This document shows positions 1-39,342 of a DNA stretch of 64,000 nucleotides, piece by piece; position 1 is the first letter of the stretch, and each line of letters opens with the position of its first letter. The stretch lies in the NCBI RefSeq assembly GCF_050920415.1, contig NZ_CP169309.1; one strand, 5' to 3'. This DNA comes from Escherichia coli. Lineage in GTDB: Bacteria; Pseudomonadota; Gammaproteobacteria; Enterobacterales; Enterobacteriaceae. The translations under genes were made by a program, and so were the position numbers. The notes beneath the pieces are model-generated. The model saw only the letters and a program-made list of their open reading frames with translations. It had not been told where the DNA came from and made no database searches.

Positions 1-377
1 GAGAAATCACGGGGCCGTGGCAGTCGCATCCCAAACGGATGTTACGTCATAAAGCCATGATTCAGTGTGCCCGTCTGGCCTTCGGATTTGCTGGTATCTA
101 TGACAAGGATGAAGCCGAGCGCATTGTCGAAAATACCGCATACACTGCAGAACGTCAGCCGGAACGCGACATCACTCCGGTTAACGATGAAACCATGCAG
201 GAGATTAACACTCTGCTGATTGCCCTGGATAAAACATGGGATGACGACTTATTGCCGCTCTGTTCCCAGATATTTCGCCGCGACATTCGCGCATCGTCAG
301 AACTGACACAGGCCGAAGCAGTGAAAGCTCTCGGATTCCTGAAACAGAAAGCCACTGAGCAGAAGGTGGCAGCATGA
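1..377 (+). CDS. bet: Bet-like single-strand annealing recombinase, C-terminal part (5' end lies outside the window)
   Basis: Frame is open from the window edge to the stop at 375-377; ATGA stop/start overlap with the downstream exo gene as in the lambda red operon; C-terminal sequence recognised from memory as lambda Bet-like. Confidence 0.6.
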
Positions 378-1054
378 CACCGGACATTATCCTGCAGCGT
401 ACCGGGATCGACGTGAGAGCTGTCGAACAGGGGGATGATGCATGGCACAAATTACGGCTCGGCGTCATCACCGCTTCAGAAGTTCACAACGTGATAGCAA
501 AGCCCCGCTCAGGAAAGAAGTGGCCTGACATGAAAATGTCCTACTTCCACACCCTGCTTGCCGAGGTTTGCACCGGTGTGGCTCCGGAAGTTAACGCTAA
601 AGCACTGGCCTGGGGAAAACAGTACGAGAACGACGCCAGAGCCCTGTTTGAGTTTACTTCCGGCGTGAATGTTACTGAATCCCCGATCATCTATCGCGAC
701 GAAAGTATGCGCACCGCCTGCTCTCCCGATGGTTTATGCAGTGACGGCAACGGCCTTGAACTGAAATGCCCGTTTACCTCCCGGGATTTCATGAAATTCC
801 GGCTCGGTGGTTTCGAGGCAATAAAATCGGCTTACATGGCCCAGGTGCAGTACAGCATGTGGGTGACGCGAAAAGATGCCTGGTACTTTGCCAACTATGA
901 CCCACGAATGAAGCGTGAAGGCCTGCATTATGTCGTGATTGAGCAGGATGAAAAGTACATGGCGAGTTTTGACGAGATGGTGCCGGAGTTCATCGAAAAA
1001 ATGGACGAGGCACTGGCTGAAATTGGTTTTGTATTTGGGGAGCAATGGCGATGA
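374..1054 (+). CDS. exo: Lambda-type 5'-3' exonuclease (YqaJ/lambda Exo family), 226 aa
   Basis: 226 aa ORF starting [40 protein letters not shown], recognised as near-identical to phage lambda Exo; position immediately after bet. Confidence 0.85.
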
Positions 1055-1233
1055 AGCATCCTCACGATAATATCCGGGTAGGCGCGATCACTTTCGTCTA
1101 CTCCGTTACAAAGCGAGGCTGGGTATTTCCCGGCCTTTCTGTTACCCGAAATCCCCTGAAAGCACAGCGGCTGGCTGAGGAGATAAATAATAAACGGGGA
1201 GCTGTATGCACAAAGCATCTCCTGTTGAGTTAA
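1045..1233 (+). CDS. Small lambdoid early-left protein (lambda Orf60a-like)
   Basis: 62 aa ORF overlapping the exo stop, same position as orf60a in lambda. Confidence 0.45.
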
Positions 1234-1397
1234 GAACGAGCATTGAGATGGCACATAGCCTCGCTCAAATTGGAGTCAGGTTTGTGCCAATACCAGTAGA
1301 AACAGACGAAGAATTTCATACGTTAGCCGCATCCCTTTCACAAAAGCTGGAAATGATGGTGGCGAAAGCAGAAGCAGATGAGAGAGACCAGGTATGA
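1206..1397 (+). CDS. Small lambdoid early-left protein (lambda Orf63-like)
   Basis: 63 aa ORF, same strand, positional equivalent in the lambda b-region. Confidence 0.4.
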   Translation: MHKASPVELRTSIEMAHSLAQIGVRFVPIPVETDEEFHTLAASLSQKLEMMVAKAEADERDQV

Positions 1398-1473
1398 CAA
1401 CCACTGAATGCATTTTTCTGGCAGCGGGCTTCATATTCTGTGTGCTTATGCTTGCCGACATGGGACTTGTTCA

Positions 1474-1689
1474 ATGACACATCAGCAAGAAAACGCCCTT
1501 CGCAGTATTGCCCGTCAGGCTAATTCTGAAATCAAAAAAGCCAGACAGCAGTTCCCGGATAAAAACGTCGATGATATTTGCCGTAGCGTACTGAAGAAGC
1601 ACCGCGAAACGGTAACGCTGATGGGATTCACACCGACTCATTTAAGCCTGGCGATCGGCATGTTAAACGGCGTCTTTAAGGAACGGTGA
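1474..1689 (+). CDS. Small lambdoid early-left protein (lambda Orf61-like)
   Basis: ORF 1408-1689; start placed at the internal Met (MTHQQENALRS...) by analogy with lambda. Confidence 0.4.
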   Translation: MTHQQENALRSIARQANSEIKKARQQFPDKNVDDICRSVLKKHRETVTLMGFTPTHLSLAIGMLNGVFKER

Positions 1690-1787
1690 GCATGAAAAAC
1701 AAAATCATCATGGAGCTACAGGCTCCTTTTTTATTATTCGCATTCACCCTCAAGCGTATTAACCAACAATTCAGGGATTAATGAAAG

Positions 1788-2006
1788 ATGGCAGACATCA
1801 TTGATTCAGCATCAGGAATTGAAGAATTACAGCGCAACACAGCAATAAAAATGCGCCGCCTGAACCACCAGGCTATATCTGCCACTCATTGTTGTGAGTG
1901 TGGCGATCCGATAGATGAACGAAGACGCCTGGCCGTTCAGGGTTGTCGGACTTGTGCAAGTTGCCAGGAGGAGATCGAACTTAAGAACAAACAATGGGGA
2001 CTGTGA
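1788..2006 (+). CDS. TraR/DksA-family C4 zinc-finger protein, phage-encoded
   Basis: 72 aa with CxxC(17)CxxC pattern (CCECGD...CRTCASC) typical of TraR/DksA-like proteins; good spacing from upstream genes. Confidence 0.6.
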   Translation: MADIIDSASGIEELQRNTAIKMRRLNHQAISATHCCECGDPIDERRRLAVQGCRTCASCQEEIELKNKQWGL

Positions 2007-2053
2007 TGGCCTCAAAGCAGCAAATTTCAACATCGTCCAACTGAGGTGTAAAA

Positions 2054-2332
2054 ATGTTCAGAATCATTTTTCCTAACACCTGGTACGTCGACCACCACGG
2101 CACTCCCTGCAAAATCCTGCGTTCTACCCACAACAAAGTTCACTACATCCGAAAAGGCAGAACATGTATCGCCAGCATGTTCCGCTTTAATCATGACTTT
2201 GAACCTGTGAATAAAGCTGATGCAGATCGGATAGCAGAAGAGATCGAAACGGCAGAACACATTAAGAAGTTACGTGACATGCGTTCAAAAAGCAGAGGTA
2301 ACCATGGAATCATACAGCCTCACACTCGATGA
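2054..2332 (+). CDS. Hypothetical prophage protein
   Basis: 92 aa ORF between the zinc-finger gene and xis; no recognisable motif. Confidence 0.3.
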   Translation: MFRIIFPNTWYVDHHGTPCKILRSTHNKVHYIRKGRTCIASMFRFNHDFEPVNKADADRIAEEIETAEHIKKLRDMRSKSRGNHGIIQPHTR

Positions 2333-2675
2333 GGCCTGTCAGTTTCTTAAGATATCCAGACCAACCGCCACCAACTGGATACGAACAGGCCGCCTACAGG
2401 CAACACGTAAAGATCCAACCAAGCCAAAATCTCCTTACCTCACAACACGGCAAGCCTGCATTGCGGCGCTTCAGTCTCCGCTGCATACTGTCCAGGTGAG
2501 CGCGGGTGATGGCATAACAGAGGAAAGAAAATGTCACTCTTCCGCAGAAATGAAATATGGTATGCCTCGTATTCGCTCCCGGGCGGGAAACGAATTAAGG
2601 AATCTCTTGGCACAAAGGACAAGCGGCAAGCTCAGGAGTTGCACGACAAGCGAAAAGCAGAACTCTGGCGAGTAG
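2304..2675 (+). CDS. xis: Putative excisionase (Xis); 3' end uncertain because the frame stays open into int
   Basis: Start ATG at 2304 preceded by GAGG; N-terminal 60 residues resemble a small DNA-binding excisionase; located directly upstream of and overlapping int as in lambdoid phages. Confidence 0.4.
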
Positions 2676-3694
2676 AAAAGCTAGGGGATTTACCTGATGT
2701 CACTTTTGAAGAGGCCTGCCTAAGATGGCTTGAGGAAAAAGCTGATAAAAAATCTCTCGATTCAGATAAAAGCCGGATTGAGTTCTGGCTTGAACATTTT
2801 GAGGGTATAAGGCTTAAAGATATCTCGGAGGCAAAGATTTACTCTGCTGTAAGCAGAATGCATAACAGAAAGACGAAAGAAATATGGAAACAGAAAGTTC
2901 AGGCCGCCATCAGGAAAGGTAAAGAACTGCCTGTTTATGAACCAAAGCCAGTATCAACTCAGACAAAGGCAAAGCATCTTGCCATGATAAAGGCCATTCT
3001 CCGTGCTGCAGAACGCGACTGGAAGTGGCTGGAAAAAGCGCCTGTCATCAAGATACCAGCGGTCAGAAACAAGCGAGTCAGATGGCTGGAAAAGGAGGAA
3101 GCAAAACGCCTTATTGATGAGTGCCCCGAACCACTGAAATCTGTCGTCAAGTTTGCGCTGGCAACTGGTCTGAGAAAGTCGAACATCATAAATCTGGAAT
3201 GGCAACAAATCGACATGCAGCGACGAGTTGCCTGGGTGAATCCAGAAGAGAGCAAATCAAACCGCGCCATTGGTGTGGCGCTAAACGATACCGCCTGTAA
3301 AGTGTTGCGTGATCAAATAGGCAAGCATCACAAATGGGTGTTTGTACATACCAAGGCGGCTAAGCGAGCAGATGGAACATCAACGCCTGCGGTCAGGAAG
3401 ATGCGCATCGACAGCAAGACATCATGGCTATCAGCTTGTCGTCGTGCAGGAATTGAAGATTTCCGTTTCCATGACCTCAGACACACCTGGGCAAGCTGGC
3501 TGATTCAGTCAGGCGTCCCATTATCAGTGCTTCAGGAAATGGGCGGATGGGAGTCCATAGAAATGGTTCGTAGGTATGCTCACCTTGCGCCTAATCATTT
3601 GACAGAGCATGCGAGGAAAATAGACGACATTTTTGGTGATAATGTCCCAAATATGTCCCACTCTGGAATTATGGAGGATATAAAGAAGGCGTAA
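2531..3694 (+). CDS. intD: Tyrosine site-specific integrase of an argU-integrating lambdoid prophage (DLP12 IntD type), 387 aa
   Basis: 387 aa; C-terminal catalytic region with [10 protein letters not shown] and RRYAHL motifs; ends 15 bp from the 3' end of tRNA-Arg. Confidence 0.9.
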
Positions 3695-3709
3695 CTGATT
3701 GAATTGTAA

Positions 3710-3786
3710 TGGCGCGCCCTGCAGGATTCGAACCTGCGGCCCACGACTTAGAAGGTCGTTGCTCTATCCAACTGAGCTAAGGGCGC
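3710..3786 (-). tRNA. argU: tRNA-Arg (anticodon UCU)
   Basis: 77 nt cloverleaf read on the minus strand: GCGCCCTTAGCTCAGTTGGATAGAGCAACGACCTTCTAAGTCGTGGGCCGCAGGTTCGAATCCTGCAGGGCGCGCCA; anticodon loop CT-TCT-AA; 3' CCA encoded. Confidence 0.9.
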
Positions 3787-4028
3787 GTTGATACCGCAAT
3801 GCAGTGTAATCGCGTGAATTATACGGTCAACCCTTGCTGAGTCAATGGCTTTTGATCTGGTTGCTGAACAAGTGAACGACCACGTCTGATTTTCTGATTT
3901 ATTTCGCTATAGCGGCAAACAAACGCACCCCGCTGCGCATCTGAATCAAGAAAACCCGTATTTTCATGTATCAAAGTACAATTTCCAGCCCTAACGGAAA
4001 ATTGTCCTACCCTGTGAGACTGGTAACT

Positions 4029-4661
4029 ATGAAACCAACGTCGGTGATCATTATGGATACCCATCCTATCATCAGAATGTCCATTGAAGTTCTGTTGCAA
4101 AAAAACAGTGAATTGCAGATTGTCCTGAAAACGGATGATTACCGCATAACCATCGATTATCTCCGAACCCGTCCTGTTGATTTAATCATTATGGATATAG
4201 ACTTGCCCGGTACAGACGGTTTTACCTTCCTGAAAAGAATCAAACAAATCCAGAGTACGGTGAAGGTATTATTTTTATCATCAAAATCAGAATGCTTTTA
4301 TGCGGGCAGAGCGATACAAGCGGGTGCTAACGGTTTTGTCAGTAAATGCAATGATCAGAATGATATTTTTCATGCCGTCCAGATGATTCTCTCTGGATAC
4401 ACTTTTTTTCCCAGTGAAACGCTCAACTATATAAAAAGTAATAAATGCAGCACCAATAATTCAACAGCTACGGTGCTATCTAATCGTGAAGTGACTATAT
4501 TACGCTATCTGGTTAGCGGATTATCTAATAAAGAAATTGCCGACAAACTATTACTTAGCAATAAAACAATTAGTGCGCATAAATCTAATATTTATGGCAA
4601 ACTCGGTTTGCATTCAATTGTAGAACTTATCGACTACGCCAAATTATATGAATTAATATAA
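4029..4661 (+). CDS. fimZ: LuxR-family response regulator FimZ (receiver domain plus C-terminal HTH), 210 aa
   Basis: ORF 3966-4661; start taken at MKPTSVIIMD; receiver motif DLIIMDIDLPGTDG and LuxR HTH (EIADKLLLSNKTISAHKSNIYGKLG). Confidence 0.9.
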   Translation: MKPTSVIIMDTHPIIRMSIEVLLQKNSELQIVLKTDDYRITIDYLRTRPVDLIIMDIDLPGTDGFTFLKRIKQIQSTVKVLFLSSKSECFYAGRAIQAGANGFVSKCNDQNDIFHAVQMILSGYTFFPSETLNYIKSNKCSTNNSTATVLSNREVTILRYLVSGLSNKEIADKLLLSNKTISAHKSNIYGKLGLHSIVELIDYAKLYELI

Positions 4662-17008: not shown

Positions 17009-17206
17009 GCCGGATGCAGCGTGAACACCTTATCCGACCTACTAATCCGGTACCCATTGTAGGCCTGATAAGACGCGTCAAGCGTCGCATCAGGCATGGT
17101 GCGCCGATTACCGGATGCGGCGTGAACGCCTTATCCGACTACCAATCCGGTACCCATTGTAGGCCTGATAAGACGCGTCAAGCGTCGCATCAGGCATGGT
17201 GCGCCA
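17009..17206. repeat. Tandem REP/BIME-type intergenic repeats (two units of about 100 bp)
   Basis: Near-identical units containing gccggatgcggcgtgaacgccttatccg and taggcctgataagacgcgtcaagcgtcgcatcaggc, directly repeated. Confidence 0.7.
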
Positions 17207-25298: not shown

Positions 25299-25340
25299 GT
25301 CATACCACACGCCTGATTATTTTTAGCTATGTTGGATTTT

Positions 25341-25367
25341 GCCACGGTTTATACCGTGGCTTTTTTT
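25341..25367 (+). terminator. Rho-independent terminator after allE
   Basis: Hairpin gccacggtttataccgtggc followed by T7. Confidence 0.6.
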
Positions 25368-25382
25368 GTAGTCAATTCAGGT

Positions 25383-25410
25383 AAAAAAAAGATGCGATAT
25401 AAATCGCATC
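25383..25410 (-). terminator. Rho-independent terminator after glxK
   Basis: Hairpin gatgcgatataaatcgcatc preceded on the plus strand by A8 (T8 on the minus strand). Confidence 0.55.
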
Positions 25411-25427: not shown

Positions 25428-26573
25428 TCAGTTTTTAATTCCCTGACCTATTTTAATGGCGCAGGCAATATTTCGCGCACTGTTGAAGAGATTGGTTTCA
25501 CCGCTGGCGAGCACTTCGGCTAAAGGTGCCAGACGTGGCAAAATGCTGAATACCGCGTCAATGCCGTACTGGTGCACCACTTCCACGCCATCACCCAATA
25601 CACCAGCAATCCCAACCACCGGGACATTAAACTGCTTCGCCACCGACGCCACACCCAGCGGCGCTTTACCGCCTGCCGTTTGCGAGTCGATGCGCCCTTC
25701 CCCGGTGATCACCAGTGCTGCACCCTGCACCGCCTGCGCAAGATTGACCGCATTCAACACAATCTCAATACCCGGTTTAATATCCGCATTGAGGAATACC
25801 GCCGCCGCAATGCCCATACCGCCCGCCGCACCGCCGCCCGCCATCTGGCAGACGTTGATTTCAGTTAGCTGTTGTAAAACACGGGCGTAATTTTGCAGCC
25901 CCTGTTCCAGCTCTTCGACCATTTCTGGCGTTGCCCCTTTTTGCGGGCCAAACACCGCCGCCGCGCCGCGTGCCCCTACCAACGGATTATCTACATCGCA
26001 CGCTACTTCAATATGGCAGTTCGCCAGGCGCGGATCGCACTCCTCCATCTCAATGCTTGCCACGCGCGCTAAATTGCCACCGTTAGCCGCCAGCGCCTGA
26101 CCGTCGGCATCAAGGAAACTCGCACCAAGCGCCTGCGCCATGCCCATACCGCCGTCGACCGTCGCGCTACCACCAATGCCGAGAATAATATGGCGAATAT
26201 CGTTATCCAGCGCATGGCGAATTAACTCCCCCGTACCAAAACTGGAGGCCAGCAACGGATTACGCTTTTCAGGCTCGACCAGCATCAGGCCACTTGCCGC
26301 CGCCATCTCAATCACCGCCGTTTTCCCGTCGCCGGTAAGGCCATAAAAAGCATTCACTGTTTCCCCCGTCGGCCCACAGACTTCAAGCGTCACGATTTTG
26401 CCGCCCGTCGCTGCGACCATCGCATCCACCGTTCCTTCGCCGCCATCCGCTATCGGCAAACAGATATAGTGCGCATCGGGAAATATGGTCGAAAACCCGG
26501 CTTTAATTGCCTGACAACATTTTTCTGCACTTAAGCTCTCTTTAAACGAGTCTGGCGCAATGACAATCTTCAT
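25428..26573 (-). CDS. glxK: Glycerate 2-kinase
   Basis: ORF 25428-26579; start at [14 protein letters not shown]; glycerate kinase family. Confidence 0.9.
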
Positions 26574-26594
26574 TATCAATCCTTTTTCAACAAA

Positions 26595-27902
26595 TTATTC
26601 GATGCGTTCCCACGGAATAAGATTATCCATAAGAACAGCCAGTAAAATTCCGACCAGTAAGCCGTTACTGAGCAGAGGACGAAGCGTTAATGGAAGGTCT
26701 TGCAGATACACAGGCGGTAATGCCATTAAAAATATGCCGACAAATAACGGCAATGCGAGTCGATAAATATTGCGAGCGGTAAACGTTATTTGCTGACTAA
26801 ACACCAGCGCGGAAAAGAGTAAAGGCAGATAAGAAACCAGCATGACCGCGCTACTCACTGGTAAGGGGATACTGCAAAACAGTCGCGTGAATGCCGGAAC
26901 CAGTGCCACCAGCAGGCAAATAACGCTGCCATAAATAAACGAACGCCGCGTGTAATCGCCAGTCTGGGTTAATAAACCAATGGATGAAACGAACGGTGAA
27001 AATGGAATTACCGCCAACGGCACGGTTATCAGCGTCATAAATCCGGTCGCCACAAAGCTGCGCCGGTAACGCGAATTCCCCGCGCCCTGTTGCGGATAAA
27101 AAACATCCGTTCCGCGAATCGCACCGTAGGTATTACTGATATTTACCAGACCTGTAATCACCGCCGTCAGAATAATCCCCGGCGACAAAGCACCGCCACT
27201 GCCGAGCGGGAACCACTGCCAGTGCAACTCACCGGAGAGCGAATGCGAAGAAGGAAAGCAAAAGTACCACAACAACCAGCCGGTTATGGTACCGACCAGC
27301 AGGCCATAACGGGCAAAACGTTGCGGCAGGAAGATAATCATCGCCAGTACCAGGCACATCACCGCCACCGAGAGCGCGAACGGCGGTAACTGAATTTTAA
27401 AATTCGGGTCGGCTATGCCAAACGGCAGGCCGAGCATACCTTTGAAAAAGATAGTGGTCAGCTGCGCGCCCAGCATCAACATAAACAAGACCATCACAGA
27501 CGGCGTAAATAACCACGCCAGGCGATGACCTAATCCGCTAAAACCAATCAACATCGTCAGCACGCCAGAGAGCGCAATTCCCACCGCCAGGCTGGTAGCA
27601 ATATCGTTGATCGGTGTCCCGCGCGATGCTTCGCCAAGGGTGATAGTAAGGATGGTTCCCCACCACAGGCCACCCGGCCCTTCCATAATAGCGCGACGAT
27701 GACCGCAGAACGCCTGAGCGAAGCAGGCCAGTGCGGTAGCAAGAAAAGCATATTGCGTGAGCGTAAGCAGGCTACTTTGCGGCAACTGAAAAGCAGAAAG
27801 TAGCGTAGGAGGAACCACAACAGTGTTGCAAAAAATAAAGAAAAACCACTGAAATCCTGATAACAGGCTTTCGCGGCTGACTGCAAAATTGAACATAAAC
27901 AC
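26595..27902 (-). CDS. ybbY: Putative purine/uracil permease (NCS2 family)
   Basis: 435 aa polytopic membrane protein at the conserved position. Confidence 0.8.
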   Translation of the reverse strand: MFMFNFAVSRESLLSGFQWFFFIFCNTVVVPPTLLSAFQLPQSSLLTLTQYAFLATALACFAQAFCGHRRAIMEGPGGLWWGTILTITLGEASRGTPINDIATSLAVGIALSGVLTMLIGFSGLGHRLAWLFTPSVMVLFMLMLGAQLTTIFFKGMLGLPFGIADPNFKIQLPPFALSVAVMCLVLAMIIFLPQRFARYGLLVGTITGWLLWYFCFPSSHSLSGELHWQWFPLGSGGALSPGIILTAVITGLVNISNTYGAIRGTDVFYPQQGAGNSRYRRSFVATGFMTLITVPLAVIPFSPFVSSIGLLTQTGDYTRRSFIYGSVICLLVALVPAFTRLFCSIPLPVSSAVMLVSYLPLLFSALVFSQQITFTARNIYRLALPLFVGIFLMALPPVYLQDLPLTLRPLLSNGLLVGILLAVLMDNLIPWERIE

Positions 27903-27952
27903 ACCTTAACCGGAGAATGCCCGCCGCAAGGACGGGCATTGCAGGGGCCAGA

Positions 27953-29314
27953 TTACTGCTGATGTTTAAGGATAAATTGACCTTTCGGCGCAACAGGGAA
28001 GCCCTGTTCGATGTCGTAAATCACATCACCACGTAAGAGGGTTTTCGTGATACGCGCGCCAATGGTACGGCCAACATACGGGCTGACTTTGTGGCGATAT
28101 TCCAGATCGTCATTGGTAAGAACATAGCTGCTATTCGGCTGAATGAAGACGAAGTCGGCATCTTTTCCTGGGGCGATCCGGCCTTTTTGCTGCAAACCGA
28201 AAATATCTGCTGCGTTAGTTGCCATTAATTTGCCGAACATCGGCAGAGACATACCACGTTTCTGTACTGCTTCATCGAACATCACGTCCATGCAGCTTTG
28301 CAGACCGGCGATACCGCCCCATGCTTTCATGATGTTGCCTGCTTTCATTTCCGGCGGGCATGGAGAGTGGTCGGAAACCAGGCAGTCGATTTCACCGTTA
28401 AACAGTTTTTCCCACATGCCTTTCTGGTTTTCCAGATCGCGGATCGGTGGTGAACACTTCGCCAGAGTACCGATTTCTTCGAACTGATCGGTATCCAGTA
28501 CAAAGTAATGCGGGCAGGATTCACAGGTAACGTCCTGGCCTTCCTGACGCGCACGAGTCACCTCTTCAACACCTTCCGGGCTGCTGATGTGGCAAACGTG
28601 CAGACGGCAACCGGCGACTTTCGCCAGGTACAGTACGCGGCGAATCGCTTCCACTTCGGTAAACACCGGACGCGAAGCCACATAGTCATGAGCGGTTACG
28701 CGACCTTCGCGCTTCGCTTCTTCGCCCAGTTCGTCACAGATCAGCGCATTTTCGCAGTGCACCAGCACTGGCTGACCCAGTTCGCCCAGCTTCTGTGCGC
28801 CTTTGAAAAACTGCCAGTCGTTTACGTCACGGAAGTCGTTGTCGATACCGCGATCGCCACAGGTTGCAACGAAGCATTTGAAGCCGACAACGCCCACTTC
28901 ATCCAGCTCATGCAGACGGTCGATGTTGTAAGACACCAGGCCACCGAGTTGCGCCGCATCGATAGTCAGCTTGCCTTTAGCGGCATCAAACTTCAGTTCA
29001 ATCGATGCGCGGTCAACCGTTGCAGGCAGCTGGTTGAGCGGCATTTCGATCATGGTGGTGATACCCCCTTTTGCCGCTGCGCGAGTACCCGTTTCATAAC
29101 CTTCCCAGTGGCTACGACCCGGTTCAGAAATATGGGTGTGCGCATCAACCATGCCTGGCGAAACCACCAGACCAGACGCATCCATAACTTCTTTTGCATC
29201 GCCCAGATCCTGACCGATAGCAGCAATTTTTCCGCCTTTAACGGCGATATCTACAACGCGAGCTTCGTTTTCTAAAATAACGGTGCCGTTTTTAATGATT
29301 AAATCAAAAGACAT
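27953..29314 (-). CDS. allB: Allantoinase
   Basis: ORF 27953-29362; start at [14 protein letters not shown]; cyclic amidohydrolase with HxH metal site (DAHTHISEP). Confidence 0.9.
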
Positions 29315-29374
29315 AACAAACTCCTTGTAAAATACAGATTGGTTTTTTAACTCAATGTTCAATATCGGGATTAA

Positions 29375-30829
29375 TTAACCTGTGACTTTTTGTTCTCCTG
29401 TTTTTTCTGCTGCAGTACGTTTCTTTAATAAGGCGTAGGCCGCAAAGGCGACAATAACGCCGACAAACCATGAAATGCGTGATAAAGGCTCCATGAACGG
29501 AATAAATTTACCACCGAGAGATAAAATAACGGCGACCAAAGTTACTGAGAACGCGGTGAGGTTAAAGCCGTTATCATAATATTTATAATCGCCTGCTGCG
29601 GTGTACAGCTCATCAAGATTAATTTGCCCACGCATCACCACAAAATAATGCGCCATCATCACACCAATGACCGGACCAAGCATTCCGCCGATAATATCGA
29701 GGAACAGATAAATACTGTCCTGATTTTCCATTAACTTCCACGGGCAGATCAGCAGGCTAATAATACTGGCAATCAGTACGCCATTTTTATAAGTCAGTTT
29801 CGTCGGCGCAATAGCGGCAATCTGATATCCGGCTGGAATAATATTACCGGTGGCATTAGTGGAAATGGTCGTCATCAGAATAACCAGTACCGCAAAGAAC
29901 GAGGCAAACAGGCTATCCCAACGCTGAACAATATCCAGCACGTTCCAGGTGTCAGCGCCGTAGTGAATACTGGCTCCGGCAATAATACATACCCCGGCGA
30001 CCGCAAACAGAATATAGGCCACAACTAAACCCAGCGTTTGCCCCAGCGCCTGCTCACGAAACGAGTGGGCGTTTTGCGTAAAGTCGGATGCGCTCACCGC
30101 CGGTGCCGCCCAGACCGCAACCACCGCGTTGATCACCACCAAAAACAGGAAGCCACTGTTTTCTGCTTTCTGAATACCGCTCGGGATGTAGTCAAAGATG
30201 GGACCAATCCCGACGAGCGAAATCGCCCAAATTGCCATGCCGCCGAAAACGATATAGATACACGGATTAAGAATAGCGGTGAATTTATTTAAAACTTTGC
30301 CACCACCGAAACCGATTCCGACGTTCACCAGCCAGAAGAGTACGAAAGTGATTAAGCCCGGTAGAGAAAGCCCTAACAGGGTAAAATCACCACCGAGAGT
30401 TAAAAATCCCGGCCAGATTTTGCCAATCAGGATCAAGCAGGCCAGCGATCCGGCGTAACATTGCAGGCCAAACCACATAATGGCAGCAATCCCGCCTCTT
30501 AATAATCCGGGAAACAGTGCACCACGTACGCCGTAAGAAGCACGCAGGATCATGGCAAACGGTACGCCGTATTTACTGCCCGTAGCACCGTTTAATACCA
30601 TTACCGCGGCAATGAAAAAGGCACTGAGGATAATTGCCAGCATAATACTAAAGGTAGACAAGCCGAGAATAAAAAAGCCGCCAACCATCACATAATTGGG
30701 AACGTTATGAACCGAACCCATCCATAAGGTAAAATAGTTAAATGTTTTCCAGGTCCGCTGGCTTTGCGTTTTCGGCAATAGATCTTCGCTATAGCCGCGT
30801 TGCTGGAATAGTTTTCTCTGATGTTCCAT
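29375..30829 (-). CDS. ybbW: Allantoin permease (NCS1 family)
   Basis: 484 aa membrane transporter. Confidence 0.85.
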   Translation of the reverse strand: MEHQRKLFQQRGYSEDLLPKTQSQRTWKTFNYFTLWMGSVHNVPNYVMVGGFFILGLSTFSIMLAIILSAFFIAAVMVLNGATGSKYGVPFAMILRASYGVRGALFPGLLRGGIAAIMWFGLQCYAGSLACLILIGKIWPGFLTLGGDFTLLGLSLPGLITFVLFWLVNVGIGFGGGKVLNKFTAILNPCIYIVFGGMAIWAISLVGIGPIFDYIPSGIQKAENSGFLFLVVINAVVAVWAAPAVSASDFTQNAHSFREQALGQTLGLVVAYILFAVAGVCIIAGASIHYGADTWNVLDIVQRWDSLFASFFAVLVILMTTISTNATGNIIPAGYQIAAIAPTKLTYKNGVLIASIISLLICPWKLMENQDSIYLFLDIIGGMLGPVIGVMMAHYFVVMRGQINLDELYTAAGDYKYYDNGFNLTAFSVTLVAVILSLGGKFIPFMEPLSRISWFVGVIVAFAAYALLKKRTAAEKTGEQKVTG

Positions 30830-30998
30830 AAATCCCTCTTAATTTCACGTATCGAATAACGCTGTTTTTAATCTAGCTATGAGGAACAAATAAAAAACAA
30901 ATATTATTTTAAATACTGAAGCAACATCTTTGGCTGCTTTCTTTTTTAATATTGCTGGCCGATTCATTTTCTGATATCGGCCATTTTTATTGCGGGTA

Positions 30999-31877
30999 TC
31001 AGGCCAGTTTATGGTTAGCCATTAATTCCAGCGCCTGCACTAACGCAGAGTGATCCAACTGGCTGCCACCGTTTGCCGCACAGGTATTAAACAATTCCTG
31101 GCAGGTCGCGGTGTTTGGCAGGTTCAGCGCCAGTGCTTTCGCACTTTGCAGTGCCAGGTTGAGATCTTTCTGGTGCAGCGCAATTTTGAAACCTGGATTA
31201 AAGGTGCGTTTAATCATGCGCTCACCGTGAACTTCCAGAATACGTGAGGAAGCAAAGCCGCCCATCAGCGCCTGGCGCACACGTACCGGATCCGCTCCGG
31301 CTTTTGAAGCAAACAGCAGGGCTTCAGAAACCGCTTCAATATTGAGCGCCACGATAATCTGATTTGCCACTTTGCAGGTCTGGCCGTCGCCGTTACCGCC
31401 CACGAGGGTGATATTTTTACCGAGCAATTCAAACAGCGGTTTAACACGTTCAAATACCGCTTCGTCGCCGCCAACCATAATCGACAACGTCCCTTCACGC
31501 GCGCCGATTTCACCGCCGGAGACGGGCGCATCGAGATAATCGCCGCCCAGTTCATTCACCTGACGAGCGAAACGCTTAGTTTCAATCGGGGAAATGGAGC
31601 TCATATCAACAATGGTTTTGCCCTTCAGCGAGGCTTTGGTACAACCATTTTCACCAAACAGAACTTCTTCAACCTGTGGCGTATCCGGCACCATAATAAA
31701 AATGATGTCCGATGCTTCCGTTACCTGGCGCGCAGTTTCAACACTGACGGCACCCAGTGACAGTAATTCATCAACAACCGGACCAATGGTTGTGACATGC
31801 AGTTGATGACCGGCACGCGCCAGATTAATGGCCATCGGTGTACCCATAATGCCTAAGCCAATAAATCCCAGTTTCAT
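30999..31877 (-). CDS. glxR: Tartronate semialdehyde reductase
   Basis: 292 aa; NAD-binding N-terminus MKLGFIGLGIMGTPMA. Confidence 0.9.
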   Translation of the reverse strand: MKLGFIGLGIMGTPMAINLARAGHQLHVTTIGPVVDELLSLGAVSVETARQVTEASDIIFIMVPDTPQVEEVLFGENGCTKASLKGKTIVDMSSISPIETKRFARQVNELGGDYLDAPVSGGEIGAREGTLSIMVGGDEAVFERVKPLFELLGKNITLVGGNGDGQTCKVANQIIVALNIEAVSEALLFASKAGADPVRVRQALMGGFASSRILEVHGERMIKRTFNPGFKIALHQKDLNLALQSAKALALNLPNTATCQELFNTCAANGGSQLDHSALVQALELMANHKLA

Positions 31878-31976
31878 AATTAACCTCTTTTAAATTTCGA
31901 TTTTCCTGAATTCAGACAACACGATCCCCTGCCAACTTAGCGGCCTAAAAAAGCATTGCCTGAACAGCGTTACGTT

Positions 31977-32753
31977 TTAACGGTACGGATCCATCCAGCG
32001 TAAACCGGCTTCCGTGGTGGTTTGGGGTTTATATTCACACCCAACCCAACCGTTGTAGTCAGAATTTTCAATTACCGTAAAGAGATACTCATAATTAATT
32101 TCTCCGGTTCCCGGTTCGCCGCGATGCGGATTATCGGCAATTTGCAGGTGGCCAATTTTATCGGCCCATTGAGTCATAGTGTTGGTTAATTCACCTTCCA
32201 TCCGCTGCATATGATAAATGTCATACTGAATTTTCAAATTGCAGCAACCAACATCATCAATCAATTTCAGCGCCTGTTGAGTTCCGGTGAGATAGAAACC
32301 AGGAATATCAAAATGGTTAATAGGTTCAATCAGTAATAAAATATCTTCTTTCATCAGCATATTCGCGGCATAACGCAGGTTTTCTACAAGCGTTGCGTGA
32401 ATCTGTTCACTGCTGAAACCAGCCGGCGTTTTACCGACCAGACAGTTGATTTTTTTATTACCCAGCGCACGAGCATAACGAATCGCTGCTGCTACGCCAT
32501 CCCGAAACTCTTCTTCACGGCCAGGAATACAAGCAATACCGCGCTCCCCCGCCGCCCAGTCACCCGCCGGTAAATTGTGCAGAGTATGTTCGAGTTTATT
32601 ACTCGCCAGCACCTGTTTTAATTCTTCAATGTCGTAGTCATAAGGAAACATAAATTCAACGCCGCGAAAACCACACTGCGCTGCTTTCTCAAAACGGGCG
32701 AGAAAATCATATTCACCAAATAACATCGATAAATTCGCAGAGAAACGTAACAT
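31977..32753 (-). CDS. hyi: Hydroxypyruvate isomerase
   Basis: 258 aa TIM-barrel isomerase. Confidence 0.9.
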   Translation of the reverse strand: MLRFSANLSMLFGEYDFLARFEKAAQCGFRGVEFMFPYDYDIEELKQVLASNKLEHTLHNLPAGDWAAGERGIACIPGREEEFRDGVAAAIRYARALGNKKINCLVGKTPAGFSSEQIHATLVENLRYAANMLMKEDILLLIEPINHFDIPGFYLTGTQQALKLIDDVGCCNLKIQYDIYHMQRMEGELTNTMTQWADKIGHLQIADNPHRGEPGTGEINYEYLFTVIENSDYNGWVGCEYKPQTTTEAGLRWMDPYR

Positions 32754-32765
32754 TATTTATCTCCC

Positions 32766-34547
32766 TTATTCATAGTGCATGAAGCAGGTTTCAGTCGGTG
32801 CATCCACTGCGTTATCGGCGATATCTTCAAATTCCATGACATTATCCAGTTCGCTGCCCATCGAAATATTGGTCACACGTTCGAGAATAACTTCCACAAC
32901 TACCGGAACACGGTATTGATTCATTAATGCTTTCGCCTGTTCAAATGCCGGAGCAATATCTTCCGGTTTGAAAACACGAATCGCTTTACAACCTAAACCT
33001 TCCGCTACTTTTACGTGGTCTACGCCGTAACCGTTCACTTCGCTGGAGTTAATATTTTCGAATGCGAGCTGTACGCAGTAATCCATATCAAAGGCGCGTT
33101 GCGACTGACGAATCAGACCCAGATAGGCGTTATTCACCAGCACATGGATGTACGGAATGTTGAACTGTGCGCCAACGGCTAATTCTTCAATCAGGAACTG
33201 GAAGTCGAAGTCACCGGAAATCGCCACCACATTGCGCTCTGGATCAGCGGCACACACGCCCAGCGCTGCCGGAATGGTCCAGCCCAACGGGCCTGCCTGC
33301 CCACAGTTGATCCAGTGGCGGTCTTTAAAGACATGCAGCATTTGTGCCGCAGCGATTTGTGACAGACCAATGGTGGTGACATAACAAACATCGCGACCAA
33401 AGGCTTTGTTCATCTCTTCATACACGCGCTGCGGTTTCACCGGCACATTGTCGAAGTGGGTTTTGCGCAGCAAAGTGCGTTTGCGCTGCTGGCAGTCGGC
33501 GACCCATTCTTTACGACACGGCAGACGACCCGCTTTTTGCATCTCCTGCGCCACTTCAACCAGTAAAGTCAGGGCAGCTTTAGCATCAGAGACAATCCCC
33601 AGATCCGGGCACAGCACGCGGCCAATTTGCGTCGGCTCAATATCGATATGGACGATTTTGCGCCCTTCGGTGTATTTCTCTACCGAACCGGTATGACGAT
33701 TGGCGAAACGGTTACCGATACCAAACACCAGGTCGGACGCCAGCAGCGTTGCGTTACCGTAACGATGCGCGGTTTGCAGACCCACCATCCCGGCCATCAG
33801 TTCATGATCGTCCGGGATACAGCCCCAGCCCATCAGCGTTGGGATCACCGGAACGCTGGTCAGTTCAGCAAACTGTTGTAACAGTGCAGCTGCGTCAGCA
33901 TTGATGACCCCGCCCCCAGCAACAATCACCGGACGTTCAGCCTGGATTAACATTTCGACCGCTTTTTCAATCTGCATACGGCTGGCAGCAGGTTTATAGA
34001 CCGGCAGCGGTTCGTACATGTCAGGATCAAACTCGATTTCCGCCACCTGAACGTCGAACGGTAAATCCACCAGTACCGGACCCGGACGACCAGAACGCAT
34101 CAGGTGAAATGCCTGTTGCAGCACGCGAGGCACCAGCGCCGCTTCACGAACTGTAACCGCCATTTTGCTGACCGGTTTAGCGATAGCTTCGATATCTACG
34201 GCCTGAAAATCTTCTTTATGCAGACGGGCGCGCGGTGCCTGGCCGGTAATGCACAGAATAGGAATGGAATCAGCAGAAGCAGAATAGAGCGCGGTGATCA
34301 TGTCCGTGCCCGCAGGACCGGAAGTCCCCAGACATACGCCGATATTCCCTGCCGTTGCGCGGGTATAACCTTCCGCCATGTGCGAAGCACCTTCCACATG
34401 ACGCGCCAGAATGTGACGAATACCGCCGTGCTTACGCATCGCTGAGTAGAACGGATTGATTGCAGCCCCCGGAACGCCGAAGGCGGTGGTAATACCTTCT
34501 TTCTCCAGCACATACATTGCCGCGTCAACGGCTCTCATTTTTGCCAT
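32766..34547 (-). CDS. gcl: Glyoxylate carboligase (ThDP-dependent)
   Basis: ORF 32766-34637; start at [19 protein letters not shown]; 593 aa. Confidence 0.9.
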
Positions 34548-34592
34548 TTTATTCCTACCTCTATTAATTGGAAAAATTTTCCAACTTTCAAA

Positions 34593-34620
34593 TTTTGTCA
34601 AAAAAACCCGCTCCGCAGAG
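34593..34620 (-). terminator. Putative terminator after allR
   Basis: Hairpin cccgctccgcagagcggg with an adjacent A7 run on the plus strand. Confidence 0.4.
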
Positions 34621-34636
34621 CGGGATGCGACAGACA

Positions 34637-35452
34637 CTATGGATGTGCTTTCAGTCCCAACGCCGTGCTGATATCGCGGGCGGTGTCTCTGACCAGCTCA
34701 CCCTGACTGACAAAACGATCTTCTGTCAGTCTTGATGAAGGCCCGGAGATGGAGATAGCGGCAACAACGCTACCTACATCATCGTAAATTGCTGAAGCTA
34801 TGCAATTCAGACCTACAACATGCTCTTCTTTATCTACGGTATAGCCCAGTTCACGCGCTTGTTCCAGGTCCTTCAGCAAGGTGGGCATATCCACAAGCGT
34901 AGTTGGCGTAAACTGCTGCAAACCGGTTTGCAGAATGATGCTCATCAACTCCTCTTCCGCCAGCGGATAAAGCAGCGCTTTGCCCGCACCGGAAGCATGC
35001 AGCGGCAGACGACTGCCCAGCGGCGCACACATCCTGACCATCGATTTACACTCTAATTGACCAATTAATACTGCTTCATTGCCGTTACGAATCGCGACAT
35101 TGACCGTTTCGCCGGAAAGTAACATCAGGCGGCGCATAAATGGCCCAGCGACGGAGAGGACATCGCGGTTATGGATGTACGCCGCACCGACGTTAAAGAC
35201 ACCTAATCCTATATGCCACCAGCCTAACTGACTGTCCTGATAGACAAAATCCGCTGCCTGTAAAACCTTCAGCAAGCGAAAGGTCGTGGAGAGCGGCAAA
35301 TCCAGATTGAGAGAAATATCGCTAACCGACGAACTTCCCCCACTTTTTTCCAGATATTGCAGAATCGCAATTCCCCGCTCTAACGCCTGTGCGCCCTTTT
35401 GTGCCACAGGCTCCGCCTGTCCTGGCCTGCCGCGCCGTCTAACTTCCGTCAT
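34637..35452 (-). CDS. allR: IclR-family repressor of the allantoin regulon
   Basis: 271 aa IclR-family sequence. Confidence 0.9.
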
Positions 35453-35529
35453 ACCTACGTTAACTCCGACCTACAAGTGAGCATAAACAATGAACAATTA
35501 GTTTATCTTATGCAAGTCGGTTGCAGGCG

Positions 35530-36012
35530 TCACGCAAAACAGAGTTCCTGTTCAGGAATACTTTCAACATCACAGTTGTCACTGCCGCCGCGATCGATGG
35601 TCAGAAAATCGGTGACGCGCTGCCAGGCGAAAAGTGGGTGATGCCAGACGTTACGATGGTAATTCACTCCCTGTTCACCGTTGGTAATAAACGCCCGCAG
35701 GGTTGACAGGTCTGGTTTGTCGTCACCTAACGCCACGACCACCACAAACACTTCCCCTTTCATCGGAATAAAGGCCTGAGTGCCCAGCGGATGACGTTCG
35801 AGTTCGTGAATGGTCAGCGGCAGATTCGCCGGTTGCGCGCGGTTAATGCTGATAAGCGTACGGTCTTGCTCAAGAATCTCAACCAGCGCCAAATCGTGGT
35901 AACGCTCCACCAGGCCATTGTTAATATGGAAAAAATCCCGTTGCTGCGTTTCGATTACGTCGCCATAAGCACTAAAGGCTTCCTGACTTAACGGTAATAC
36001 CTGAAGTTTCAT
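35530..36012 (-). CDS. allA: Ureidoglycolate lyase
   Basis: 160 aa. Confidence 0.9.
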
Positions 36013-36240
36013 CTTTTTGTCCTTGTAACATAATTCCGTTCAACCACCGCCGACCGGTCAATGTGGTTCAATAACAGGCAATCTAAAACCTTAAGAGAAC
36101 AACATCAATACAAATGTTGGAATATTTTTCCAAAACTAGATTTAGTCCACAAATCACACAGGGTTATCATGTAAAAATACTGATAAATCAGAGGATAAGA
36201 AAATCACGCAACTTGCGGATTTAAAAGGGGATACCTGAAG
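36013..36240. promoter_or_regulatory. Divergent allA / allS control region (AllR operator expected here from established knowledge)
   Basis: 228 bp AT-rich intergenic region between divergent allA and allS; operator position inferred, not seen as a motif. Confidence 0.4.
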
Positions 36241-37167
36241 ATGTTCGATCCAGAAACCTTGCGGACTTTCATTGCGGTTGCTGAAACAGGAAGTTTTTCA
36301 AAAGCGGCAGAACGATTATGTAAAACCACGGCGACGATCAGTTATCGCATTAAACTTCTGGAAGAGAATACCGGAGTGGCGCTGTTTTTCCGCACGACTC
36401 GCAGCGTGACGTTGACAGCGGCTGGCGAGCATCTACTTTCTCAGGCCAGAGACTGGCTGAGCTGGCTGGAAAGTATGCCCAGCGAGCTGCAACAGGTGAA
36501 TGATGGCGTGGAACGCCAGGTGAATATTGTCATCAACAACCTGCTCTACAACCCCCAGGCCGTCGCCCAGCTGCTGGCGTGGCTGAATGAACGTTACCCC
36601 TTTACCCAGTTTCACATCTCCCGACAAATCTATATGGGCGTCTGGGACTCGCTATTGTACGAAGGTTTTTCACTGGCTATCGGCGTCACGGGAACCGAGG
36701 CGCTGGCAAATACCTTTAGTCTTGATCCCTTAGGATCGGTGCAATGGCGCTTTGTCATGGCGGCGGATCATCCGCTGGCGAAAGTTGAAGAGCCGCTAAC
36801 AGAAGCGCAGTTGCGGCGCTTTCCGGCGGTTAATATTGAAGACAGCGCCCGCACCTTAACCAAGCGCGTCGCCTGGCGTTTGCCGGGGCAAAAAGAGATT
36901 ATTGTTCCCGATATGGAAACGAAAATCGCCGCCCATCTGGCGGGCGTTGGCATTGGTTTTTTGCCAAAATCACTTTGCCAGTCAATGATCGATAATCAAC
37001 AATTGATCTGCCGGGTAATCCCAACGATGCGCCCTCCTTCGCCATTGAGTCTGGCATGGCGCAAATTTGGCAGCGGCAAAGCGGTAGAAGATATTGTGGC
37101 CTTGTTTACCCAGCGCAGGCCGGAAATCAGCGGATTTTTAGAAATTTTCGGCAACCCACGCAGTTAA
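36241..37167 (+). CDS. allS: LysR-family activator of allD
   Basis: 308 aa with N-terminal LysR HTH. Confidence 0.9.
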
Positions 37168-37220
37168 AAATCAAGTTTCCTTGCGCGTTGGCGCGTAAAA
37201 TAGCGTGCAAGCTGATTTGA

Positions 37221-38330
<1,110 letters not shown>

Positions 38331-38364
38331 TGAGGGACACGGTGCCTGTTTCATAAAGATCATT

Positions 38365-38782
38365 TATACCCGTCATACTTCAAGTTGCATATGCGTTGGC
38401 AAGTTATTCAGGGATAGCCGGATGAGTGACATCACCATCCGGCTTAAGATTCCATACTATAATAATTCGAGTTGCAGGACAAAACGCCAGTGGCGTTTTG
38501 AACAACGCTTGCGTTGACCCTGAAAGGGTGAGGCCTAAGGCCGAGTAACGCGACAGGCGAGTGACAAATTCGTCGGGAACGAATTTGACCAGCCTCTGGC
38601 TGGCCTTCGGTGAAAGGCATCCTGCCTTTCAGTCATCCCCAGTCACTTACTGGGGTGAGCGACAAATCCGCATGGAGCGGATTTGAACGCTGCTTGCAGC
38701 GGTCCCGTAAGGGGTGAGGCCCATGGATGGGCCGAATAACTCGCAGACGCAGCACATGCAACTTGAAGTATGATGGGTATAT
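38365..38782. repeat. ERIC/IRU-like composite intergenic element bounded by 30-bp inverted repeats
   Basis: Left arm tatacccgtcatacttcaagttgcatatgc, right arm gcacatgcaacttgaagtatgatgggtata; interior contains the ERIC core-like agtcacttactggggtgagcg and internally repeated ggtgaggcc...ggccga segments. Confidence 0.5.
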
Positions 38783-38939
38783 ACACAATGAACTTCAAGA
38801 CACTTGCTTCGGTATCTGGAAATTATCATTAATTCTGGATGCGACCAGCCTTGCTATATCTGGCAATGTTTCTTCAAAAACGTCGATATTGTATCCCAGA
38901 AATCTCACACACTGCTGAACCGGCATGTTCATTAATTAT

Positions 38940-39342
38940 TTATCCAGGCCATTTGCAATCAGTACCATCACTATTATATGCCTCAATATTTTCTTCAAAC
39001 TCAGTTATTTTTCCACTTTTCGATTTATAGTAAGAGCTATTAAATCTTGCACCCTGCGTAGCAACAACATACAATCCGTTGACTTTACATCCTATAACCT
39101 CACTCCATGTATATGTAAACTCTGAAGGTCTATCATCGAAAGTCACTTCCAATTTTTTCGTAAATGCAAGAGGTATGAAATTTGAGGATATTCCATAAAC
39201 CACATAACCTAAAACAACATCACCAGAAGATACTTCAACAAATTTTAAATTTATCTTCCCGAAACTAAAACAGCCAACCGTAGTTTGTTATTTAGCAAAT
39301 AAGAAAAAGGGCATCAAACAAAAAATTAAAACAAATAATTTA
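38940..39342 (-). pseudogene. Frameshifted remnant of a small exported protein
   Basis: ATG at 39342 opens a signal-peptide-like frame (MKVKLFVLIFCLMPFSYLL...) that stops after about 32 codons; a different frame continues as the 87 aa ORF 38940-39203. Confidence 0.3.

Follow-up and report, generated by a model that had tools for sequence, protein, structure and literature searches.

The argU end of a probable PhiR26_1-type prophage in Escherichia coli carries lambda-type bet and exo genes

The stretch of DNA analyzed here (64,000 nucleotides of Escherichia coli contig NZ_CP169309.1, hereafter the window) opens inside a bet gene and passes through phage-like genes into argU, the tRNA gene at which the DLP12 prophage of K-12 is integrated. 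The locus raises the question of whether this edge belongs to a complete temperate phage or to one of the decayed prophages found at the same site. The first-pass annotation had read it as the end of a lambdoid prophage at argU whose lambda-type bet-exo module is apparently intact, and every element that it listed was recovered at or near the position it gave. The features of the region are as follows.

1-377, plus strand: 3′ part of bet (Red-beta), read in frame 3 from position 3; residues 138-261 are encoded, among them the Exo-binding C-terminal domain
374-1054, plus strand: exo, full-length lambda exonuclease (PD-(D/E)XK, YqaJ-type), 226 aa
1051-1233, plus strand: orf60a (DUF1317), which opens the exo-xis region, with 58/60 residues as in lambda orf60a; phrog_1998
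1206-1397, plus strand: orf63 (DUF1382), 60/63 identical to lambda orf63; phrog_292
1408-1689, plus strand: orf61-like ORF, which runs for 93 aa when read from the ATG at 1408, whereas the annotated gene starts at 1474 (71 aa); phrog_303, positions 23-93 of 101
1712-1735, plus strand: putative terminator-like hairpin with a T-run after it, lying between the orf61-like ORF and the TraR gene (consensus scan only)
1788-2006, plus strand: TraR/DksA-type C4 zinc-finger gene, orthologue of lambda orf73; phrog_54, E 5e-25
2054-2332, plus strand: DUF4222 gene, annotated without a function, at the start of the non-lambda segment; phrog_285, PGAP annotation in identical genomes
2304-2675, plus strand: xis, coding for a full-length P22-type excisionase of 123 aa; its last 145 nt overlap int, in a different frame
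2531-3694, plus strand: int, tyrosine integrase of the IntD (DLP12) type, 387 aa, 386/387 identical to K-12 IntD
3708-3754, no strand assigned: att core, attR copy, an exact 47 bp made up of the 45 3′-terminal argU bases and 2 bases downstream
3710-3786, minus strand: argU, tRNA-Arg(UCU) (ARAGORN; Rfam tRNA, 72 bits)
3818-3845, minus strand: promoter-like site upstream of argU, in host DNA outside the prophage (TTGACT-16-TATAAT, 11/12 matches, consensus only)

Window positions 1-3711, from bet to int, are 100% identical to the genome of PhiR26_1 (PV340555.1, 48,207 bp), with zero differences. Because 3,711 consecutive bases match a deposited phage genome, the resemblance lies far above chance. 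PhiR26_1 shows no difference anywhere in the shared part, and at the end of its record lies the attL copy of the 47-bp core, followed by host flank. Prophages in five complete E. coli genomes are also 100% identical to window 1-3711, and the deposited phage genomes 2G7b, ev243, Turner, and PhiR68_2 are 98.2 to 98.5% identical; for 2G7b (Nesevirus nv2G7b) and ev243, this value refers to window 1-3757 and corresponds to a nucleotide divergence of ∼1.5%. We consider it highly probable that window 1-3754 is the attR end, on the integrase side, of a temperate, lambda-like prophage belonging to the PhiR26_1/2G7b (Nesevirus) type, integrated at the 3′ end of argU in the manner described by Campbell, and that this prophage is most likely complete and recently acquired.

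The window begins within bet, and completeness in this genome was judged from the identical relatives. Upstream of the part equivalent to the window, PhiR26_1 encodes an S24-type CI together with cro, and its gene content includes gam, kil, cI, cro, O, P, ren, Q, S/R/Rz, Nu1 through J, and stf. The extension upstream that the first-pass annotation had proposed could thus be followed in relatives: PhiR26_1 has gam, kil, cI/cro, O/P, Q, and the lysis, head, and tail genes, and in all five of the complete genomes with the identical argU end the next 25 kb of phage is contiguous, from gam through the immunity, replication, and lysis genes to the head genes. Tail genes were found only in PhiR26_1 and, up to J, in one of the five genomes; the portal gene is split by a satellite insert in three of the five. 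The viability of PhiR26_1 is taken solely from its deposited record (complete genome, host MG1655), and a literature search for PhiR26_1 found no paper describing it. Among the lysogenic-conversion genes of the identical phage are bor, ompT, and a PD-lambda-1/SNIPE defence gene, whose PD-lambda-1 label is explained by the SNIPE paper (Nature 2026).

Similarity to lambda itself is confined to part of this region. Window 1-1983 is collinear with lambda (NC_001416) at 97.2% nucleotide identity, and the homology stops at 1983, inside the TraR/orf73 gene. At the protein level, identity is 99% for Bet, 98% for Exo, 97% for orf60a, 95% for orf63, and 90% for orf73/TraR. Past 1983, DUF4222 and an argU-targeting xis/int pair of the P22 type stand in place of the lambda genes ea22, ea8.5, xis, and int and of lambda attP (bio-gal site). 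Judged from these alignments, only window 1-1983 is lambda-like, whereas xis, int, and att form a P22/DLP12-type module distinct from lambda's. The phage as compared here is a mosaic, with an early-left arm (gam, bet, exo, orf60a, orf63, orf61, and orf73) that is essentially that of lambda and a module of DUF4222, xis, int, and attP that is of the P22/DLP12 type.

Bet is a single-strand annealing protein that binds Exo via its C-terminal domain, and Gam is an inhibitor of RecBCD. The visible part of Bet is identical to lambda Bet residues 138-261 at 123 of 124 positions and matches PDB 8tfu, 6m9k_D, and 7ujl, so that the Exo-binding C-terminal domain is present (123/124 identity; PDB 6m9k_D and 8tfu); the 100% identical PhiR26_1 holds the full 261-aa Bet with the N-terminal annealing domain intact. 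As in lambda, the bet stop codon overlaps the exo start (ATGA). The exo product had been described as a full-length protein of 226 aa nearly identical to lambda Exo, and alignment bears this out at 222/226 identities, the substitutions being T90A, N168D, R191Q, and I202M. Exo aligns over residues 1-226 with PDB 6m9k_A, 1avq, and 3sm4, and exo matches phrog_149. From the lambda Exo structures, we take Asp119, Glu129, and Lys131 to be catalytic and Arg28 to bind the 5′-phosphate; R28, D119, E129, and K131 are all unchanged in the alignment to lambda Exo. Inactivating changes in exo had been named at the outset as evidence that would count against an intact module, and the alignment to lambda Exo contained no frameshift, no stop, and no inactivating change in the reading frame, with the catalytic residues kept.

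The small lambda-like early-left ORFs reported in the first-pass annotation are all present (orf60a, orf63, and the orf61-like ORF), and orf60a is annotated as DUF1317 in identical genomes. The orf61-like ORF exceeds lambda orf61 in length owing to a frameshift in the lambda reference at this point, the C-terminal part lying in another lambda frame. The gene that follows, earlier called a TraR/DksA-type zinc-finger gene, has the expected CxxC-x17-CxxC arrangement (cysteines C35, C38, C56, and C59) and shares 90% identity with lambda orf73, an ORF that the lambda record leaves unannotated. It scored 52.4 bits against TIGR02419, under the curated cut-off of 59.7; membership in the TraR/DksA family therefore rests on the motif, the match to PHROGs (phrog_54), and the identity to lambda orf73.

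The integrase is full length, retains the catalytic Arg...His-x-x-Arg...Tyr motifs (TGLR at 212, HDLRH at 314, and RRYAH at 347), matches phrog_1 and phrog_10426, and is only 27% identical to lambda Int. Upstream of it, xis matches the excisionase family phrog_2907 at positions 2-117 of 117 (E 6e-46), scores 27.7 bits against the TIGR01764 domain, just under its cut-off of 28.8, and encodes a protein 76% identical to P22 Xis. The family match is end to end, includes the N-terminal helix-turn-helix, and belongs to an ORF located directly upstream of int and overlapping it. The geometry is that of P22, in which int also starts 227 nt past the xis start, xis also overlaps int, and Int is also 387 aa; Xis here is 7 codons longer than in P22, so the overlap is 145 nt rather than 124 nt. 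P22 integrates at thrW, not argU (PMC2629481). In the two identical records examined, PGAP reduces xis to a 66-bp pseudogene fragment. That xis is a pseudogene, as suggested by this call and by K-12 xisD, was rejected given the end-to-end excisionase-family match and the P22 geometry, and we interpret the 66-bp call as a probable annotation artefact.

The first-pass annotation had also assigned to this end an argU-specific integrase abutting tRNA-Arg(UCU) and had predicted an attachment core overlapping the 3′ end of argU. Both assignments stand: the integrase differs from IntD at a single position of 387, argU integration is shown by comparison of the att sites, and the core is the exact 47 bp at 3708-3754, with the sequence AATGGCGCGCCCTGCAGGATTCGAACCTGCGGCCCACGACTTAGAAG. 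A length of 47 bp has been reported for the DLP12 core (PMC6379469). The core is exact in attR (the window), attP (2G7b), attB (the empty sites of MFDS1022581 and L009), and attL (the end of PhiR26_1 and the far prophage end of K-12), the last two supplying the second att repeat for which a search had been suggested. The free phage genome of 2G7b contains int, attP, and ompT, and its core and P′ arm are the same as in the attL of PhiR26_1 and K-12. Comparison of the four sites shows the exchange of arms that Campbell integration produces (attP x attB yielding attL and attR). On this sequence evidence Int, a tyrosine recombinase, exchanged the 47-bp core common to attP and argU, the phage copy restoring a complete tRNA gene. 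The argU gene in the window is identical to the empty-site allele and, by this comparison, the phage-borne core regenerates an intact argU. No structured RNA other than the tRNA was found in 1-3786 by an Rfam scan at gathering thresholds.

The K-12 prophage DLP12 shares the integration site and the 47-bp core, and the int-argU-fimZ junction is 97% identical. It differs in what remains of the adjoining genes. As the first-pass annotation had claimed, DLP12 has only a truncated exo remnant: exoD is a 264-bp pseudogene comprising the 3′ end, and window 775-1080 (the last ∼93 exo codons and 26 bp past the stop) aligns to exoD and its flank. Window 1081-2435 is deleted from DLP12, in which xisD is 5′-truncated, bet and gam are missing, and IS3 and IS5 are inserted; the corresponding window genes are intact. 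The prophage in the window was accordingly described at the outset as more complete than DLP12, and it does keep the bet part, the full exo, positions 1081-2435, and the full xis.

Host sequences bear on how recently the prophage arrived. Window 3801-28800 is matched at 100% identity by MFDS1022581, in which the order is envY-argU-fimZ without a prophage. Since argU is unoccupied in this genome of identical backbone, the gain or loss of the prophage was recent. The prophage-bearing MS 85-1 is 100% identical to the window up to 3802 and about 93 to 98% identical past it, a sharp change at the left edge that arises because the phage DNA ends and the host chromosome begins after the 47-bp core at 3754. 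A divergent Escherichia host, suggested by 97.1% identity over window 1-25000, was rejected when a host-only query gave MFDS1022581 at 100%; the 97.1% match came from ranking by coverage x identity, which hid backbones without the prophage. The FimZ allele is present in 1,429 blocks by exact-protein look-up, and the window backbone was combined with this prophage in none of the 18 FimZ/Int loci among the matches listed.

The same sequence could instead be the end left over from a defective (grounded) prophage, with the Red-int end intact and the upstream part truncated or disrupted; there would then be no induction and no Red expression from pL. Remnants at argU are very frequent, the exact integrase being present in 18,147 index blocks by exact-protein look-up, and K-12 DLP12 is the classic example. 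Several of the sampled contexts with the same integrase (L016, L019, L020, L022, and L023) are decayed, one of them (L020) having IS1 directly upstream of bet with gam lost, and even among the identical relatives a satellite insert splits portal in three of five. All genes in the visible part of the window are intact, however, unlike in the decayed examples, and zero differences separate it from PhiR26_1 across 3,711 bp. The contiguous upstream 25 kb in 5/5 genomes with the identical end and the empty site on an identical backbone, which implies recent gain or loss, also speak against this reading, and we regard a defective prophage as unlikely. It is probable that the strain harbors a lambda-like phage that can be induced and whose Red system is functional. 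For excision and virion production, the vacant site on the identical backbone and the deposited phage genome with its laboratory host offer indirect support.

When such a system would be active is a separate matter. In lambda, bet and exo are read from pL, which CI represses in lysogens. The consensus scan found four promoter-like sites in 1-4100, a number equal to the shuffle expectation and all on the non-coding strand, and no promoter-like site on the coding strand of this interval. Because that strand lacks such a site, we expect no expression of bet-exo in a lysogen before induction. The first-pass suggestion that the prophage may provide native Red functions stands in that exo is intact and is narrowed in that it holds only after prophage derepression. 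In its stronger form, an internal promoter or read-through would drive bet-exo even without induction, giving the host a constitutive Red-type recombination capacity. Spontaneous induction in some cells, as known from lambdoid lysogens, would yield some Red activity at the population level. Constitutive expression is nevertheless very improbable given the empty coding strand (for which an internal Red promoter was dropped as a candidate) and the chance-level number of sites opposite, the gene order and ATGA coupling that match the CI-repressed lambda pL operon, and the S24-type CI and cro upstream in PhiR26_1. From knowledge of the family, SOS induction would lead to cleavage of the S24-type CI and to leftward early transcription through gam-bet-exo to xis-int. 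Xis and Int would then excise the prophage, and Exo (a trimeric 5′-3′ dsDNA exonuclease), Bet, and Gam would carry out Red recombination.

Prophage ends of this kind at argU, with intact lambda-type recombination genes, are frequent in E. coli and already known. Zero differences extend over 3.7 kb in hosts whose chromosomes are ∼3% apart, and the site is empty on an identical backbone, both of which would fit circulation between lineages. We lean toward the joint proposal that the phage is now circulating among distant E. coli lineages, its induced Red system recombining with DLP12-type remnants and driving argU mosaicism, and that the int-overlapping P22-type xis is functional and mis-annotated as a 66-bp pseudogene fragment. 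If true, both parts would be refinements of known biology rather than new biology. For xis, a likely annotation error is flagged, a full-length ORF standing against a 66-bp pseudogene in two PGAP-annotated records. The left edge of the window is mobile phage DNA, and the value of recognizing it lies mostly in correct annotation; for geneticists using the strain, Red activity, phage release, and lysogenic-conversion genes would be relevant.

The window opens in the 3′ part of a bet gene and, at its left end, carries the following features.

Features of window positions 1 to 3786, with strand and basis.
Stop at 377, + strand: bet 3′ part, frame open off the left edge (ORF listing, direct reading)
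374-1054, + strand: exo, 226 aa; its ATG overlaps the bet stop (ATGA)
1051-1233, + strand: orf60a (ORF listing, lambda comparison)
1206-1397, + strand: orf63 (ORF listing, lambda comparison)
1408/1474-1689, + strand: orf61-like (ORF listing)
1712-1735: terminator-like hairpin (consensus scan only)
1788-2006, + strand: TraR/DksA-type gene, 72 aa (motif, phrog_54, lambda orf73 orthology)
2054-2332, + strand: 92-aa ORF (ORF listing)
2304-2675, + strand: xis, overlapping int (phrog_2907, P22 Xis)
2531-3694, + strand: int, 387 aa (comparison with K-12 IntD)
3708-3754: att core, 47 bp (attP/attB/attL/attR comparison)
3710-3786, - strand: tRNA-Arg(tct) (tRNA search)

The tRNA-Arg(tct) gene, the only tRNA found in the window by the tRNA search, lies 15 nt past the integrase stop codon and is followed by fimZ and then the sfm fimbrial operon. 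K-12 has the same argU-intD gene order, with the window reading from the opposite side. Overall, the analysis confirms what the first-pass annotation had observed from the sequence and supports its interpretation as the end of a lambdoid prophage at argU.

Window positions 1 to 1983 are collinear with phage lambda DNA (NC_001416) at 97.2% identity. The frame at the left edge corresponds to Bet residues 138 to 261 (123/124 identical to lambda Bet) and aligns with structures 8tfu, 6m9k chain D, and 7ujl, while Exo residues 1 to 226 align with 6m9k, 1avq, 3slp, and 3sm4. Exo is identical to its lambda counterpart at 222 of 226 positions (the changes are T90A, N168D, R191Q, and I202M), and the PD-(D/E)XK residues D119, E129, and K131, as well as R28, whose functional roles are known from lambda Exo structures, are all unchanged. 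The alignment therefore reveals no inactivating changes, and the claim of an intact exo holds. The lambda counterparts of orf60a and orf63 are matched at 58/60 and 60/63 residues, respectively. The TraR/DksA-type protein (CxxC-x17-CxxC motif; phrog_54, E 5e-25) scores 52.4 bits against NCBIfam TraR, just under the cut-off of 59.7; its gene is orthologous (90% protein identity) to the ORF of the lambda exo-xis region called orf73, an ORF left unannotated in NC_001416. The orf61 of the lambda reference (61 aa; lambda 30839-31024) is frameshifted relative to the window ORF at 1408-1689, which extends over 93 aa (annotated length, 71 aa; the phrog_303 profile has 101 positions); lambda retains the C-terminal coding sequence in another frame.

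Lambda homology stops at 1983, and the genes beyond that point are not lambda’s. The integrase shares just 27% identity with lambda Int but matches K-12 IntD at 386/387 positions. For the ORF at 2304-2675, the match to the excisionase family phrog_2907 covers 116/117 positions (E 6e-46), and identity to P22 Xis is 76%; in both P22 and the window, the start of int lies 227 nt beyond that of xis, with an overlap of 124 nt in P22 and 145 nt in the window. Where this ORF lies, PGAP gives identical genomes no more than an “incomplete helix-turn-helix” pseudogene of 66 bp. That annotation was set aside, given the intact ORF, the phrog_2907 match, and the P22-like geometry, and is regarded as an artefact of the overlap with int. 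The record of Escherichia phage PhiR26_1 leaves xis without any annotation; the window ORF is intact and overlaps int as in P22.

The truncated exo remnant that had been ascribed to the K-12 DLP12 prophage was found as exoD, a 264-bp pseudogene. With its flank, exoD aligns to window 775-1080 (the exo 3′ end plus 26 bp past the stop) at 98.4% identity, and the K-12 deletion corresponds to window 1081-2435, from orf60a through the first 44 codons of xis. K-12 also lacks bet and gam, and IS3 and IS5 insertions disrupt its DLP12 element.

To define the attachment site, the window (attR) was compared with two empty argU sites (L009 and E. coli strain MFDS1022581), the attP of free phage 2G7b, which sits between int and ompT, and the far ends (attL) of PhiR26_1 and K-12 DLP12. 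All share an exact 47-bp core, at window 3708-3754, made up of the 45 3′-terminal argU bases and 2 downstream bases, in agreement with the predicted overlap with the argU 3′ end. The exchange of arms around the core is exactly the one that the Campbell model demands, and argU is regenerated intact by the phage copy. At the level of sequence, the comparison demonstrates that Int-mediated exchange took place at this core. The second copy anticipated at the far prophage end is present in the PhiR26_1 record and K-12 DLP12. The same 47 bp have been given for DLP12 (PMC6379469), and the attP of the related phage epsilon34 is also argU derived (PMC2629481). At window 3803, in the stretch that separates a promoter-like site from the tRNA and 17 nt before mature argU, there is a single A/G difference (A in the window and MFDS1022581, G in L009); MS 85-1 departs from the window here as well.

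Window 1-3711 is 100% identical to PhiR26_1 (PV340555.1; 48,207 bp; MG1655 listed as host), and the deposited phage genomes 2G7b (genus Nesevirus), ev243, Turner, and PhiR68_2 are 98.2 to 98.5% identical. The PhiR26_1 gene set is complete for a lambdoid phage: gam (98-aa form), kil, an S24-type cI, cro, a gene at the cII position, O, P, and ren; the PD-lambda-1 (DUF4041, SNIPE) defence gene, rusA, Q, a porin gene, S, R, Rz, and bor; and Nu1 through J, lom, stf, tfa, and ompT. PD-lambda-1 lies outside the window (PhiR26_1 locus L002, 9690-11192; E. coli locus L001, 38243-39745) and is described as a membrane-bound nuclease cutting incoming phage DNA (PMC13190303, 2026). Between cI and kil of PhiR26_1 (L002 4498-5795, minus strand), the annotation includes no N-like antiterminator; a lipoprotein (BamE-like) gene occupies the lambda rex/N position, and the kil-containing ORF has an arginine-rich N terminus (KRTRERR) that recalls the RNA-binding motifs of N proteins.

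Window 1-3800 is matched at 100% by five complete E. coli genomes, and in all five, the next 25 kb of PhiR26_1 is directly contiguous with the identical argU end. In these relatives, the 25 kb contains the upstream genes from gam to the head genes; the window itself starts inside bet. A prophage truncated just upstream of bet is improbable here, although such truncation is real in a different strain (GCA_052260915.1; L020 5729-6697), where the same integrase and bet-exo are kept but an IS1 abuts bet on its upstream side, with loss of gam and the immunity region. The exact integrase protein occurs in 18,147 index blocks, and what adjoins it varies from whole prophages down to stumps. In three of the five genomes (L001 13568-26068 of NZ_CP098192.1, MS 85-1, and 20KM2222), the portal gene is split by an insert of ∼10.9 kb coding for an integrase, a Bro-N protein, a primase, a major capsid and a decoration protein, and a small terminase. 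The insert fits the pattern of helper-embedded PICI satellites, which target prophage late genes (PMC10111431).

Prophage-bearing MS 85-1 is 100% identical to the window up to 3802 and about 93 to 98% identical thereafter. MFDS1022581 is 100% identical over 3801-28800 and nearly identical onward to 64000, and its argU site is empty (envY, argU, fimZ). One phage occurring in different backbones, and one backbone occurring both with and without it, show recent integration or precise excision. These patterns favour, short of proof, a complete prophage copy in this genome. Apart from the prophage, which MFDS1022581 lacks, and a 1.33-kb IS2 that it carries and the window lacks (window ∼39594-39599; L027 13456-14785), the two sequences show no difference over 26145-39599 and 29 differing positions in 39594-64000. 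Elsewhere in the window, a direct repeat of ∼330 bp (42648-42971 and 45211-45534; copies about 77% identical) is located inside an island; in the related strain, this island comprises vgrG/tssI, hypothetical genes, and a partial ISAs1 transposase. Rfam gathering-score matches to naRNA4 (two copies) and STnc480 lie at 17062-17140, 25305-25371, and 54734-54811 (all minus strand), the first two coinciding with MS 85-1 alignment breaks (17106-17118 and 25370-25392).

Of 5,426 complete E. coli genomes, 623 contain at least 80% of window 1-3800 in one place, so this arrangement is a common one. Temperate phages of this type are likewise common and have been sequenced before, and the site occupied here is a classic one for integration. 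By sequence, exo, the C-terminal part of Bet, xis, and int are intact, and bet and exo are coupled through the ATGA overlap. A consensus scan found no coding-strand promoter-like site in 1-4100, which, with the terminator-like hairpin, fits reliance on an upstream promoter and antitermination. By analogy with lambda and P22, CI would repress leftward early transcription in the lysogen, leaving Red, Xis, and Int silent; SOS-induced CI cleavage would let transcription of the operon extend through gam-bet-exo and the exo-xis region as far as xis-int. Xis and Int would then excise the prophage, Exo would resect 5′ ends, Bet, bound to Exo via its C-terminal domain, would anneal the 3′ tails, and Gam would block RecBCD. 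With the operon expected to be CI repressed and no internal promoter-like site, the idea put forward in the first-pass annotation, that native Red-type recombination functions may come from this prophage, is a reasonable one for induced cells but not for others.
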